Source: a virus (lineage: Duplodnaviria > Heunggongvirae > Uroviricota > Caudoviricetes). Taken from it: a stretch of 8,330 nucleotides of DNA. The notes under the pieces were generated by a model, which ran no database searches, had not been told where the DNA came from, and worked only from the letters and a program-made list of their open reading frames with translations. The stretch is from IMG/VR virus record IMGVR_UViG_2537562231_000028; one strand, 5' to 3'. Below, one piece after another: positions 3,495 to 8,330 of the stretch. Numbering within the stretch: the stretch's first letter is position 1; each line of letters opens with the position of its first letter. Both the position numbers and the translations under genes were made by a program.

Positions 3495-3794
3495 ATGAAA
3501 CTTAAATATCCTGGCTTAACTGACAGCGGCAAAACTCGCACTAAATTCATGCGCGGGGATATTTACCGCGACCAGTACGGCGGCACGGTAATGATTAAGG
3601 GCGTGGAGGAACGGCGCGTAACCTACCATCGTGAAGGCTACGAATATGATTGCGTGATGCCTGTTTATCAGTTCCGGCGTGATTTTTCTCTGGTACAGGC
3701 AGCGCCCCGCAGTAAACCAACCAGCAGGGAGAAAGCACGCGCCAATATTCAGGAAATAAAAAAGATGCTTAACGTATTCAGGGGTAAAAAATGA
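3495..3794 (+). CDS. Hypothetical protein (99 aa) translationally coupled to the primase gene
   Basis: ATG 3495 follows the upstream stop by 5 nt. Its stop overlaps the primase start (ATGA at 3791-3794). Basic C-terminal tail. No family recognised. Confidence 0.5.
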   Translation: MKLKYPGLTDSGKTRTKFMRGDIYRDQYGGTVMIKGVEERRVTYHREGYEYDCVMPVYQFRRDFSLVQAAPRSKPTSREKARANIQEIKKMLNVFRGKK

Positions 3795-5545
3795 AACTGG
3801 CACCGAACGTAAAAAAACAGCCACGCGGAATAAAACACAAAGACACAGAGGTGATTATTTTCGCGGGTAGTGATGCGTGGGCACATGCAAAACAGTGGCA
3901 GGAGCAGGACGGCCCCGCATCCGGCGATAATGTGCCTCCTGTGTGGCTTGGGGAGCAGCAGTTATCAGAACTGGATAAGCTGCAAATTGTGCCGGAAGGC
4001 AGAAAATCCGTGCGCATATTCAGGGCCGGACATCTTGCACCAGTAATGATCAAGGCGATTGGTCAAAAGCTGGCGGCGGCTGGTGTACAGGATGCAAATT
4101 TTTATCCTGAGGGTATGCACGGCAAGGAGGTGCAGAACTGGCGCGAATACCTGGCCCGTGAACGCCAGAATCTTTCTGATGGTCTGGTCATTGAGCTTCC
4201 GGTAAAGCAAAAGGCGCAACTTTCGCAGATGGCGGACAGTGAGCGCGCGCAGCTGCTTGCCGATCGCTTTGATGGCGTTTGCGTACATCCTGAAAGTGAA
4301 ATTGTTCACGTATGGCGCGGCGGGGTATGGTGTCCGGTCAGCACAATGGAACTTAGCCGCGAAATGGTGGCGATCTATTCAGAGCACAGGGCCACTTTCA
4401 GCAAGCGCGTAATCAATAACGCCGTGGAAGCGTTAAAAGTTATTGCCGAACCAATGGGCGAGCCGTCCGGCGATTTGCTGCCGTTCGCCAATGGTGCGCT
4501 TGACCTGAAAACGGGGGAATTTTCCCCGCACACGCCGGAGAACTGGATCACCACGCACAACGGCATTGAGTACACGCCACCAGCACCAGGGGAGAATATC
4601 CGCGACAACGCGCCAAACTTTCATAAATGGCTTGAGCACGCAGCCGGAAAAGACCCGCGCAAGATGATGCGTATATGTGCCGCGCTGTACATGATTATGG
4701 CGAACCGGTACGACTGGCAGATGTTTATTGAGGCCACCGGAGACGGCGGGAGCGGTAAAAGTACATTCACACACATAGCCAGCCTTCTGGCAGGGAAACA
4801 GAACACGGTAAGCGCTGAAATGACATCGCTTGATGATGCTGGTGGACGTGCGCAGGTTGTCGGGAGTCGTCTTATCGTCCTGGCTGACCAGCCGAAATAT
4901 ACAGGCGAAGGAACGGGCATCAAGAAAATCACGGGCGGCGACCCCGTGGAAATTAACCCGAAATATGAAAAGCGTTTCACGGCGGTAATCAGGGCGGTGG
5001 TGCTGGCGACCAACAACAACCCGATGATATTCACCGAACGGGCCGGAGGTGTGGCACGTCGTCGCGTGATTTTCCGTTTCGACAATATTGTTAGTGAGGC
5101 CGAAAAAGACAGGGAGCTACCGGAAAAAATTGCGGCTGAAATCCCCGTCATTATCCGCCGCTTGCTGGCGAACTTTACCGACCCTGAAAAGGCACGGGCT
5201 TTACTCATTGAGCAGCGTGACGGTGATGAAGCTCTGGCAATAAAGCAACAGACGGATCCGGTTATTGAGTTTTGCCAGTTCCTGAATTTTCTGGAGGAAG
5301 CGCGCGGCCTGATGATGGGGGGCGGTGGCGATTCAGTGAAGTACACGACCAGGAACAGCCTTTACCGCGTCTATCTGGCGTTTATGGCATACGCAGGCAG
5401 GAGCAAACCGCTAAACGTGGCTGAGTTCAGCAAGGCCATGAAGCCAGCGGCGAAAGTTTACGGGCATGAATATATTACGCGAAAAGTTAAGGGAGTAACG
5501 CAGACCAACGCAATTACAACAGACGATTGCGACGCGTTTTTATAA
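3791..5545 (+). CDS. Satellite replication protein: primase/helicase with a D5-like (SF3-type) P-loop NTPase domain
   Basis: 584 aa. Walker A GDGGSGKST; downstream hydrophobic strand plus acidic residue (RLIVLADQP) consistent with Walker B. GGGG 6 nt before the ATG. Position immediately upstream of an iteron cluster matches Pri-Rep of PICIs and alpha of P4. Confidence 0.88.
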   Translation: MKLAPNVKKQPRGIKHKDTEVIIFAGSDAWAHAKQWQEQDGPASGDNVPPVWLGEQQLSELDKLQIVPEGRKSVRIFRAGHLAPVMIKAIGQKLAAAGVQDANFYPEGMHGKEVQNWREYLARERQNLSDGLVIELPVKQKAQLSQMADSERAQLLADRFDGVCVHPESEIVHVWRGGVWCPVSTMELSREMVAIYSEHRATFSKRVINNAVEALKVIAEPMGEPSGDLLPFANGALDLKTGEFSPHTPENWITTHNGIEYTPPAPGENIRDNAPNFHKWLEHAAGKDPRKMMRICAALYMIMANRYDWQMFIEATGDGGSGKSTFTHIASLLAGKQNTVSAEMTSLDDAGGRAQVVGSRLIVLADQPKYTGEGTGIKKITGGDPVEINPKYEKRFTAVIRAVVLATNNNPMIFTERAGGVARRRVIFRFDNIVSEAEKDRELPEKIAAEIPVIIRRLLANFTDPEKARALLIEQRDGDEALAIKQQTDPVIEFCQFLNFLEEARGLMMGGGGDSVKYTTRNSLYRVYLAFMAYAGRSKPLNVAEFSKAMKPAAKVYGHEYITRKVKGVTQTNAITTDDCDAFL

Positions 5546-6189: not shown

Positions 6190-6219
6190 TATCTTAAAAA
6201 ATGGTTGATTGATTATAAT
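6190..6219 (+). promoter_or_regulatory. Candidate sigma70-type promoter with a perfect -10
   Basis: TATAAT at 6214-6219; weak -35 candidates (CTTAAA 6193-6198, or TTGATT 6205-6210 which is too close). Sits between a terminator and an AGGAGG-led gene. Confidence 0.35.
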
Positions 6220-6267
6220 CTATCGAAAATACTGATTATTAGATGATAAGCATCAGGAGGAAACAAA

Positions 6268-6462
6268 GTGGAACAGATAAAGCAAAGCGCTACCGTGATG
6301 ATTGATCACGAGATCCTAAACGAGCTTAAAAAACTTCAATTCGATGTTATTCGCCGGATGAATGAAGCTGGTATATACGGCAGAGCCGCCACGCCAACAG
6401 TAGGCCATCTTGCTCGCGTGCTGTTACGCGAACGCCTGGGCATTGCAACAGGTGAGGAATAA
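6268..6462 (+). CDS. Hypothetical small protein (64 aa, GTG start), possibly a DNA-binding regulator
   Basis: AGGAGG at 6255-6260, 7 nt before GTG 6268. SATVMIDHEILNELKKL ... TPTVGHLARVLLRERLG could form a strand-helix-helix arrangement, but this is an uncertain reading by eye. Confidence 0.45.
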   Translation: MEQIKQSATVMIDHEILNELKKLQFDVIRRMNEAGIYGRAATPTVGHLARVLLRERLGIATGEE

Positions 6463-6464
6463 CA

Positions 6465-6626
6465 ATGGCTATCACAGAACGCGAGGCAAGCATCATTAAA
6501 GCCATTGGCGAGGAAACAAGAGACACGATAGCGCCATTAATGGAAAAGATCGCAGAGCTTGAGAGACGAATAAACAAGCTGAGTGATGAAGTTGAAGGCC
6601 TGATCTCGTTACTCGGTGAGCAATGA
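6465..6626 (+). CDS. Hypothetical small coiled-coil-like protein (53 aa); absent from the supplied ORF track
   Basis: ATG 6465 lies 2 nt after the upstream stop, with GGTGAGGAA just before it. Hand translation gives MAITEREASIIKAIGEETRDTIAPLMEKIAELERRINKLSDEVEGLISLLGEQ, with heptad-like spacing of hydrophobics; stop TGA 6624-6626. Confidence 0.4.
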   Translation: MAITEREASIIKAIGEETRDTIAPLMEKIAELERRINKLSDEVEGLISLLGEQ

Positions 6627-6628
6627 CA

Positions 6629-6680
6629 GGGGGGGGGAGTGTTCCGGCCGGAAAGTCGATCGCCCTGGACACCGCCCCCC
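6629..6680. promoter_or_regulatory. G9 / C6-flanked imperfect dyad containing nested palindromes
   Basis: G-run 6629-6637 and C-run 6675-6680. GGGGGGGAGTGTTCC (6631-6645) pairs imperfectly with GGACACCGCCCCCC (6667-6680). Loop holds the palindromes CCGGCCGG (6643-6650) and CGATCG (6657-6662). No downstream T-run. Confidence 0.35.
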
Positions 6681-6709
6681 GTCTCATTCGTAGAAAATTT
6701 TGCTTTTCA

Positions 6710-6733
6710 AAAAAGTTACACGAAAAGTTACAC
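6710..6733 (+). repeat. Tandem AAAAGTTACAC repeat (2 copies) upstream of terS
   Basis: AAAAAGTTACAC at 6710-6721 and GAAAAGTTACAC at 6722-6733. Same core as the repeats inside terS at 6953-6986. Confidence 0.6.
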
Positions 6734-6755
6734 CCCCTCAAAACGAGGTTTTTGC

Positions 6756-7244
6756 ATGGCATTAACGACCAAAAAAAAGCGGTTTGCTGATGCGTTATCA
6801 AGGGGCGCAAATCCCACGGAAGCCGCTATACATGCGGGATACAGCGAAAAGACCGCAAGGGTCAAAGGCTGGCAGCTATCCAACGATCCTGAGGTGAAAA
6901 AGTATCTTAAGGCTGTAACTCCTGATGTAACTTTTCAGGTTACAAAACCGAAAAAAGTTACAAAGAAAGTTACCGAAAAAGTTACACCGGAACGGGCATC
7001 AATTAACACCATTGAGATGATGGATAACGGCCTACCCGACCCCATCAAAGCAATGGGCAGGATACTGATTGACAACATGGACACAGATCCAAAACTGGCT
7101 TTAGATGCCGCGTTTAAGCTGGCCCAGTTCACCCACCGCAAGATCGGCAGCATTGGGAAAAAAGAGGTTAAAAAACTCAATGCCGCTAGTGTCTACTCAA
7201 ATCGGTTCCCCATCCCTAAGCCACCAACAGACTTAAAACACTGA
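6756..7244 (+). CDS. terS: Terminase small subunit (TerS) with N-terminal HTH
   Basis: 162 aa from ATG 6756 (CGAGG 8 nt upstream); the track ORF from 6639 is an unlikely extension. KKKRFADALSRGANPTEAAIHAGYSEKTARVKGWQLSNDPEVKKYL matches the TerS N-terminal HTH pattern (AAI-AGYS-KTA). Confidence 0.7.
   Translation: MALTTKKKRFADALSRGANPTEAAIHAGYSEKTARVKGWQLSNDPEVKKYLKAVTPDVTFQVTKPKKVTKKVTEKVTPERASINTIEMMDNGLPDPIKAMGRILIDNMDTDPKLALDAAFKLAQFTHRKIGSIGKKEVKKLNAASVYSNRFPIPKPPTDLKH
6915..6986 (+). repeat. Cluster of six GTTAC/GTAAC-core repeats inside terS, including three tandem AAAGTTAC(A) units
   Basis: GTAACT at 6915-6920 and 6927-6932; GGTTACA 6939-6945; AGTTACA 6957-6963; AGTTACC 6969-6975; AGTTACA 6980-6986. 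Encodes the KVT-repeat linker KPKKVTKKVTEKVTPE. Confidence 0.6.
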
Positions 7245-7255
7245 GGTAGCGAACT

Positions 7256-7417
7256 ATGAGCGAATACATCACAGACCCTATTGATGTACTCACGGAAATC
7301 ATGAACGACAAGCAGCAGTCGACCGAAATACGGTTACAGGCCGCCGCTGTTCTGATGCCATATTTTCACGAAACACTAAACCCGTGCTTCCAGGAGGAGG
7401 AAGAAGATGATCTGTAA
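7256..7417 (+). CDS. Hypothetical small acidic-tailed protein (53 aa); absent from the supplied ORF track
   Basis: ATG 7256 lies 11 nt after the terS stop, with GAGGT upstream. Hand translation: MSEYITDPIDVLTEIMNDKQQSTEIRLQAAAVLMPYFHETLNPCFQEEEEDDL. Its 3' end overlaps the start of the capsid gene. Confidence 0.4.
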   Translation: MSEYITDPIDVLTEIMNDKQQSTEIRLQAAAVLMPYFHETLNPCFQEEEEDDL

Positions 7418-8330
7418 AAACATGAAAGGCGTGTCAGCAGTTCGCGCCGCCAGCGTGCTGGCATCGTGTAAATTTAGCCATGCTGACGCTATAGAGATGA
7501 CGAAAAGAAATGATCCGGCAGTATCGTTATTTCTTGAAAAATCCGTAGTAGCAGGAATGAACACGGATAACATGCCGTCGCTGGTGGCAGAGCCGATAGT
7601 AAGAGAGCTTGGCGAGTATATTTTTTCGCAGTCTGTACCAGGCAAGCTAATCAGCAGCGCGCTAAATCTTCCTTTTGGCGCAAAATTGCAGTCAATATCA
7701 GGCAAGGGCAGTAAATGGCTTAAAGAAGCCGAAGAAATCCCTGTCAAAGAGGGAGAAGTAAACGAAAGTGCGCTAAAACTGTGCAAACTTGGCGCTATTG
7801 TGATGCTGAATAACGAGCTAATCAAATTTAGCACCCCTGGTACAAATTCAGCGATCAGAGACTTGATCACATCGGAATCGGTGAAAGAAATAGATAAAAA
7901 ATTTCTTTCCAGTGACCAGGAGGTGGCTGGCGTATCCCCTGAGGGCGTGCTTAATGGTGCTGATGAGGCCGAAAACTTCATAGAGCTTTTCAAAAAGCAC
8001 ATAGCGAACGGTAACACGCTTTCCACGTCGTCGCTAATCTTGCCCGTAGAAAACGCCTTACAGCTTACTGATGCTGAGTTCTGGCAGATAGAGCTTTTGA
8101 GAATACCGGTAATTGTGAGCGAACAGGCGGATCGCATGATGCTGATAGACGCTCAAAAGCTGATTATTAACGTTGAAGCCACGGTTATAACCCCAACTGA
8201 TGAGGCGGTAATAAAAACCGAATCAGGGGCGGTTAGCCTTTTCCAGAATGACGCTACAGCGTTCAGGGCAATCACCTATTGCGGATGGCAAAAACTCGAT
8301 AAGGCCGTCACCGTTCTGGCGAAAAGCTGA
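7407..8330 (+). CDS. Putative major capsid protein, HK97-like fold (candidate; no N-terminal delta domain apparent)
   Basis: 307 aa. AGGAGGAGG 6 nt before ATG 7407. KLGAIVMLNNELIKFS ... AIRDLITSESVKEIDKKFLSSDQEVAGVSPEGVLNG resembles the HK97-family pattern of a hydrophobic strand followed by a Gly-rich P-x-G-hh-N-G loop (compare HK97 gp5 LLNGDGTGDNLEGL). Call made by eye. Confidence 0.5.
   Translation: MICKNMKGVSAVRAASVLASCKFSHADAIEMTKRNDPAVSLFLEKSVVAGMNTDNMPSLVAEPIVRELGEYIFSQSVPGKLISSALNLPFGAKLQSISGKGSKWLKEAEEIPVKEGEVNESALKLCKLGAIVMLNNELIKFSTPGTNSAIRDLITSESVKEIDKKFLSSDQEVAGVSPEGVLNGADEAENFIELFKKHIANGNTLSTSSLILPVENALQLTDAEFWQIELLRIPVIVSEQADRMMLIDAQKLIINVEATVITPTDEAVIKTESGAVSLFQNDATAFRAITYCGWQKLDKAVTVLAKS

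Follow-up and report, generated by a model that had tools for sequence, protein, structure and literature searches.

Results

Gene content and distribution of the island

The window, i.e., the whole stretch of 8330 bp that was analysed, corresponds almost exactly to a single small integrative element. Its genes include those for a tyrosine integrase (1-1242), an AlpA-like regulator (1739-1945), a D5_N/DUF5906 primase (3791-5545), a DUF4222 protein and several small ORFs. On the plus strand it also carries the small terminase gene terS (6756-7244, 162 aa), a 53-aa ORF (7256-7417) and a gene for a capsid-like protein of 307 aa (7407-8330). In the closest genome (99.9% identity), the island is located between tRNA-Pro/yejM and yejO. 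Int, alpA, primase and packaging genes are co-directional, the element measures about 8.5 kb and its att site lies at tRNA-Pro. Lysis, tail, portal, TerL and HNH genes were not detected in the island. Judged by gene set and layout, the window is a Gram-negative PICI-type satellite of E. coli. As it encodes neither HNH nor TerL, both would have to be supplied by a helper. The terS region is found at an identity of at least 95% in 220 of 5426 complete E. coli genomes (about 4%), and the carriers include many O157:H7, O111, O103 and O121 strains.

The ORF at 6756-7244 matches Pfam Terminase_2 (PF03592) with 42 bits (gathering cutoff 26.1), the match covering only profile positions 1-51 of 141, which represent the DNA-binding domain. 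Over its full length the protein matches phrog_641 (3e-43), and by these profile matches it is a real small terminase. A search against the sequences of solved structures gave weak matches to SF6/SPP1-type DNA-binding domains (E = 0.2-0.8). In TerS, residues 5-54 form a four-helix N-terminal DNA-binding domain and residues 96-126 a helical core; the VT-repeat linker (57-84) lies between them, and a basic tail follows. In the AlphaFold2 model residues 57-84, which are encoded by the repeat units described below, have pLDDT values below 50 and no secondary structure, and the linker is predicted to be disordered. Since coding constraint in such a linker is weak, the DNA motif plausibly dictates the VT peptide and not the reverse.

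The 53-aa ORF resembles a TerS oligomerisation core with an acidic tail and without a DNA-binding domain. It matches phrog_641 positions 89-125 (3.5e-7) and, by BLASTP, the class B TerS introduced below (5e-8); similarity to the island's own TerS was not detectable. Homologs accompany this TerS type in satellites and phages, and one lies between TerS and TerL in a phage contig (L093). Thus, the mini-protein is probably part of the packaging module, where it could be an accessory or decoy subunit of TerS. The capsid-like protein is 25% identical (E = 5e-20) to the protease-capsid fusion of phage S78. This match is limited to the capsid domain (residues 291-625), and the island protein has no protease part. 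It parallels Ccm of SaPIbov5 and the capsid homolog of PmCI172 and, by analogy, may redirect capsid size. A cos genome of 8.5 kb would need small capsids or multimer packaging.

Short repeats upstream of and inside terS

The sequence AAAGTTAC occurs exactly six times in the window, at 6712, 6724, 6954, 6966 and 6978 on the plus strand and at 6927-6934 on the minus strand. All copies fall within 6712-6985 (a span of 275 bp); 0.32 copies are expected in the whole 8330-bp window, and none of 200 shuffles reached six. When one mismatch was allowed, AAAGTTACA was found at the same six sites and at one unrelated site. The shorter core GTTAC/GTAAC is present eight times, with two cores upstream of terS (6715 and 6727, plus strand) and six inside it (6915 and 6927 on the minus strand; 6939, 6957, 6969 and 6981 on the plus strand). 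Within each group the cores are spaced by 12 bp, with one step of 18 bp.

The upstream pair consists of two direct, non-coding AAAAGTTACAC units on the plus strand (6711-6721 and 6723-6733), with 22 bp between the end of the second unit and the terS ATG (6756). In the two minus-strand units inside terS (6913-6935) V-T is encoded as GTA-ACT, and in the four plus-strand units (6938-6986) as GTT-ACA/ACC. Together, the internal units yield the peptide AVTP-DVTF-QVTKPK-KVTK-KVTE-KVTP. Among close alleles the copy number of the plus-strand internal units differs by clean 12-bp and 24-bp indels (P0003 and P0004 aligned). A sequence-only reading of this DNA had described repeats upstream of and within terS. 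The counts given above confirm them, and both clusters are real, but the minus-strand orientation of the first two internal units had been overlooked.

A conserved, probable cleavage core directly upstream of the repeats

That reading did not include a conserved cos core at 6629-6698, directly upstream of the repeats. This non-coding core of about 55 bp is roughly 80% identical to the corresponding region upstream of terS in Stx phages with an HNH-TerS-TerL module, whereas its flanks are unrelated or far more divergent. Its elements follow in the order G-run, TCCGG, CGATCGC, GGACAC, CGCCCCCC(C/G)T and CTCA...AGAAAA. The left edge is formed by a G9 run (6629-6637, plus strand), as seen in the sequence, in an alignment with the phage and in a table of about 80 loci. 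Its length varies from G7 to G11 among the relatives (L004-L091), and its end always lies 43-45 nt before the cut; the run could serve in termination or HNH recognition. The conserved CGATCGCCCTGGACAC box follows at 6657-6672 (plus strand), and its exact pattern CGATCGCNCNGGACACCGCCCCC was found in 78 IMG/VR contigs. Next to it lies CGCCCCCCGT (6673-6682, plus strand), the homolog of a 10-nt 3' cohesive end, with a predicted top-strand cut after 6682. Directly to the right of the cut, the CTCAYNCNNAGAAAA(A) box with an A-tract (6683-6698, plus strand) is conserved in the alignment and in the sequences of all TerS classes.

The core is about 80% identical in 78 phage records and nearly always lies where no gene is annotated. 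It was found at 1100 places in 476 E. coli genomes; positive genomes have a median of two copies, and four are present in the genome most similar to the window. The window itself contains only one good copy. A poor second match with three mismatches in 16 positions lies on the minus strand inside the primase gene (5315-5330) and is probably due to chance, since two matches also occurred in one of 200 shuffles. A dyad around CGATCG is clear in class B and off-register in classes A and C, and it was not used.

The position of the cut was derived from Lys8385Vzw, a Stx1 phage sequenced from induced particles, whose record is broken exactly inside the core. It ends with ...GGACACCGCCCCCCCT and starts with CTCACGCAGAG..., so that the break reads ...CGCCCCCCCT|CTCACGCAG. 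The assignment as cos comes from one PhageTerm analysis of this one related phage, which gave a cos type and 3' cohesive ends, with CGCCCCCCCT as the cos sequence (PMC7946995). The CGCCCCCCGT of the window is identical to this sequence in nine of ten positions, and many class A phages carry the identical CGCCCCCCGT. Thus, the island carries a copy of the cleavage-site sequence of this phage group. Lys8385Vzw, the one informative record, was found via the TerS protein search; a search with the class B version of the core gave no phage record whose ends split it, since all matches were prophage-derived. By homology, the island would be cut at 6682/6683 and not within terS. The repeats start 30 bp downstream of the cos-end homolog. 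All eight GTTAC cores lie on the terS side of the predicted cut, at +33 and +45 (upstream pair), +233 and +245 (minus-strand pair) and +257 to +299 (plus-strand units).

Three TerS classes with their own motifs behind one core

The phage TerS closest to that of the island (46% identity) is found in Stx1a, Stx2a and Stx2c phages, for example 1717, 2851, BP-4795 and Lys8385Vzw. These phages have an HNH-TerS-TerL-head module in which TerL_ATPase and TerL_nuclease domains are present and HNH adjoins terS/terL. Behind the one core, three classes of TerS were distinguished: a phage type of 187 aa (class A), a phage type of about 165 aa (class B) and the island type with its relatives (class C). Each class has its own motif, GTTAAC, GTAAAC or GTTAC, and as class motifs these are mutually exclusive. 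Class A loci contain five GTTAAC sites (+34, +42, +110, +133 and +148), all within 150 bp of the cut, and no GTTAC. In class B, GTAAAC is found at +34, GTTAAC at +42 and, within the terS linker of the class itself, a further GTAAAC at +262. Class C shows GTTAC eight times and lacks the motifs of the other classes. The distance from the cut to the first motif core is +33/+34 in nearly all loci of the three classes; one locus has it at +32, and one locus pair has no core. A fixed distance from the cut, combined with a sequence that changes with the DNA-binding subunit, is what would be expected of a cosB-type TerS array.

Class B phages also embed their own motif in the terS linker, and therefore such embedding is not peculiar to the satellite. 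In their linker peptide VYTPAVN (L012, L014 and L047), GTAAAC at +262 occurs generally; L014 and L047 have, in addition, an inverted GTTTAC at +247.

The core of the island TerS is 70% identical to class A, 68% to the TerS of a Hafnia phage described below and 24% to class B. For its DNA-binding domain the identities are 61% (class A) and 69% (Hafnia type). A mosaic TerS, in which a foreign DNA-binding domain had been joined to a helper-like core, is unsupported by these values. Residue 39 of TerS (codon 6870-6872), located in a KG-x-QL segment that is conserved in the DNA-binding domain, is W, C or Y in all GTTAC-type proteins and S in the GTTAAC and GTAAAC types; it is a candidate specificity determinant.

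Conservation of the repeats in distant relatives

TerS relatives with 51-65% amino-acid identity were found by a database search, and their DNA was retrieved. They comprise an E. coli island variant with its own HNH (L082), a true Hafnia alvei phage with the order HNH-TerS-TerL-protease/capsid (L084), Salmonella elements (L086 and L087) and metagenomic elements (L088 and L089). In all of them a non-coding AAAAGTTACAC is kept, located 32-48 bp upstream of the start codon. The first internal VT units, as far as they are still present, use GTA-ACT codons with the motif on the minus strand, and the later units use GTT-ACA codons with the motif on the plus strand. Two of the first internal units are kept in the Salmonella and metagenomic loci, where strand, codons and position of the pair are conserved. 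One is kept in the Hafnia phage. In L082 the first internal pair is lost at the protein level, and six units including an inverted pair are present upstream of terS.

Codon choice in the VT motifs is conserved beyond that of other residues in the same genes. Between lineages, the codons are identical in 52 of 60 pairwise comparisons (87%) for the motif, versus 412 of 832 (50%) for other identical residues. Valine is encoded by GTT/GTA in 21 of 21 motif codons versus 12 of 20 elsewhere in the same genes, and threonine by ACA/ACT in 19 of 21 versus 13 of 42; these counts are small and come from related sequences in overlapping pairs that are not phylogenetically independent, but their direction is clear. 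The sequence-only reading had proposed to look at codons in homologs for conservation beyond what the KVT peptide requires. With the upstream AAAAGTTACAC and the VT codons both kept at 51-65% identity, the repeats do not behave as a by-product of KVT coding.

Two of the retrieved loci have an unusual layout. In L082/L083 (3348-5423), a TerS with 62% identity is accompanied by an HNH gene upstream of the cos core and by a capsid-like gene of 281 aa; judged by gene content, this satellite brings along part of the nuclease machinery. In the metagenomic L088 (2187-5341), a gene encoding a TerL nuclease domain comes after TerS, a small ORF and a capsid-like gene. Such a contig may represent an elongated satellite, or one embedded beside late genes of a helper.

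Discussion

In this study, we observed that an array of class-specific repeats starts at a constant distance behind a cleavage core shared with Stx phages. Since the repeats lie beside the homolog of a mapped cos end, and the relatives have HNH-TerS-TerL modules, the locus is better described as cosN plus a cosB-like array. We consider it likely that the repeats are a cosB-like recognition array for TerS next to a helper-type cosN in a cos-type satellite; TerS binding, the cut on the island and the helper are what we infer from the comparisons. In this arrangement the AAAGTTACA repeats are most likely docking sites for the small terminase of the satellite, and the upstream AAAAGTTACAC pair is proposed to provide the proximal, cosB-like TerS-binding sites. 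The Stx1 and Stx2 phages are candidate helpers.

A possible course of packaging would be as follows. The island keeps the cleavage core of the helper phages (6629-6698), and a staggered cut would leave the 10-nt 3' end CGCCCCCCGT. The TerS-binding motif of the helper, GTTAAC, would be replaced on the island by its own (A)AAGTTACA. The N-terminal helix-turn-helix domains of the island TerS might then bind the two units at +33/+45 and the six at +233 to +299. The TerS core, which is about 70% identical to class A, would recruit TerL and HNH of the helper to cut the shared core. After the top strand is nicked behind 6682, packaging would proceed rightward through terS. As the helper sites are absent from the island and the island sites from the helper, each TerS would be expected to pick only the genome to which it belongs. 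The sites of the distal cluster are situated in codons of the disordered linker, and thus the DNA motif would set the VT peptide. Potentially, the distal cluster supports wrapping or looping around the TerS ring, as proposed for pacL and pacR of SPP1; this is the least certain step.

Three other explanations have to be weighed against a cosB-like array. The repeats might bind a protein other than TerS, such as a transcriptional regulator acting on the packaging operon, a nucleoid protein, a bending protein, or the island primase, for which they would serve as replication iterons. The upstream units are located between the cos core and the ribosome-binding site of terS, a possible operator spot, and short direct repeats with 12-bp spacing resemble iterons. 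However, a sigma-70-like promoter was not found in 6200-7450, which argues against a promoter or operator, and a search for structured RNA in Rfam gave no match at E <= 1. Moreover, the motif co-varies with the TerS class and occurs in phages that lack the primase and regulators of the island. The primase gene also ends 1.2 kb away from the repeats. Primase iterons were rejected, because GTTAC follows TerS into phages without that primase; the motif travels with TerS, not with the primase. Altogether, binding of a protein other than TerS is unlikely.

A true pac site was the proposal of the sequence-only reading. Headful packaging from pac sites is known from P22, SPP1 and pac-type SaPIs. In such a case TerS would bind the repeats, the first cut would be made in or near terS, and headful packaging would give permuted, terminally redundant DNA. 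Putative recognition units in and next to terS are indeed present (6711-6733 and 6913-6986). The N-terminal domain of TerS is assigned to Pfam Terminase_2, as are those of the SPP1/SF6 pac phages, and the sites upstream of and inside terS resemble SPP1 pacL/pacR. On the other hand, the cleavage core, located 30 bp before the first repeat, corresponds to the 3' cohesive end mapped in a relative. The one related phage for which end data exist is classed as cos with a 3' overhang. Furthermore, the related phages carry an adjacent HNH nuclease, typical of HK97-type cos packaging, and the fixed spacing of +33/+34 between the cut and the first motif fits a defined cut. Thus, the DNA-level signal tied to TerS stands, but the pac label does not fit a cos-end homolog 30 bp upstream and relatives with HNH-TerS-TerL modules, and we regard a pac site as quite improbable.

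It is very improbable that the internal repeats are recent slippage duplications of a 12-bp KVT unit without any function at the DNA level and the upstream copies coincidental or remnants: clean 12-bp and 24-bp indels and a linker predicted to be disordered would agree with this, but every relative has non-coding upstream copies at a fixed distance from the cut, the strand-specific codon choice is conserved where other synonymous sites are only about 50% identical, and in class B phages another motif is embedded at the corresponding place.

Returning to the cosB-like array, it is tempting to speculate on a more general scheme for HNH-type cos phages and their satellites. One cleavage core would be combined with interchangeable cassettes of TerS domain and motif at +33, the distal half of the array would lie in linker codons in two of three classes, and the satellite would pair the cosN of the helper with an orthogonal cassette and a TerS-core mini-protein. 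We put this forward tentatively, as a possibility that may well prove wrong. If true, the cassette scheme would be a third route of cos piracy, besides an unchanged helper cos (SaPIbov5) and the Rpp adaptor (EcCICFT073).

If the reading of the locus is correct, the packaging signal of the satellite is compact, fully delimited and about 360 bp long (6629-6986). The carriers, about 4% of complete E. coli genomes, include many O157:H7 strains and other Shiga-toxin producers, and the reading would also yield a prediction of how the spread of Stx phages could be hampered by the satellite. The DNA choice of Terminase_2-type TerS is poorly understood, and three motif/TerS classes behind one core amount to a natural swap experiment. 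Orthogonal cos/TerS pairs might also be offered for engineered transducing particles. Within the incomplete coverage of our literature search, no report described a TerS-encoding PICI directed at Stx phages. Nor did any describe a PICI in which a helper-type 3'-cos core is joined to a complete TerS and a private cosB motif of the PICI itself, or a scheme of three motifs in Stx phages.

Comparison with known packaging systems

The cos site of lambda consists of cosN and cosB, the latter with the sites R3, R2 and R1 for gpNu1. In the proposed arrangement, the island would have in common with lambda a defined nicking site followed by terS-proximal short repeats, which are read by a winged-helix or helix-turn-helix domain of the small terminase, and packaging into terS. 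They differ in the overhang, which is 5' and 12 nt in lambda and 3' and 10 nt here (from the related phage), and in the small terminase, as Nu1 is unrelated to Terminase_2. In addition, the candidate helpers of the island have an HNH partner nuclease, and some units of the island array, on both strands, fall within the coding sequence of terS.

The SPP1 pac region (pacL, pacC and pacR) shares with the island a Terminase_2-type N-terminal domain and boxes upstream of and inside terS. In the pac-type SaPI1 and SaPIbov1, the satellite TerS retargets the TerL of the helper, as is proposed for the island. However, SPP1 and pac SaPIs package by headful, whereas a conserved cos core and a cohesive end mapped in a relative are found here.

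EcCICFT073 keeps cosN and cosQ of its helper and has its own cosB (PMC6739421). It is a satellite of E. coli in which, as proposed for the island studied here, a helper-like cosN is combined with a different cosB and packaging is thereby redirected to the satellite. It has no TerS, and its adaptor Rpp heterodimerises with the helper TerS (PMC6739421), whereas the island studied here encodes a complete TerS. The candidate helpers differ as well, being HNH-type 3'-cos Stx phages here and lambda/phi80 for EcCICFT073. SaPIbov5-type cos SaPIs are satellites of HNH-dependent cos phages, as is proposed for the island, and carry a cos site and a homolog of the major capsid protein of the helper (PMC5052747; PMC8569155). 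SaPIbov5 has an unchanged helper cos and no TerS (PMC5052747; PMC8569155), in contrast to the putative island-specific cosB and own TerS of the window.

It is generally known, and also documented for HK97 (PMC11331095), that HNH genes adjacent to the terminase genes are linked to cos packaging. In HK97, the TerS site is located 15-29 bp downstream of the cut, the 3' overhang is 10 nt long and cleavage is stimulated by HNH (PMC11331095). The order HNH-cos-terS-terL, the 10-nt 3' overhang and a TerS site a few tens of bp downstream of the cut would be shared with the system proposed here. The HK97 TerS, however, has no helix-turn-helix and reads a single 15-bp site via its central tunnel (PMC11331095), whereas a TerS of helix-turn-helix type and eight short repeats are found here. 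In summary, the island site resembles lambda cosN/cosB and EcCICFT073 in its putative function and the cos SaPIs in its context, and by analogy its own TerS resembles that of the pac SaPIs.
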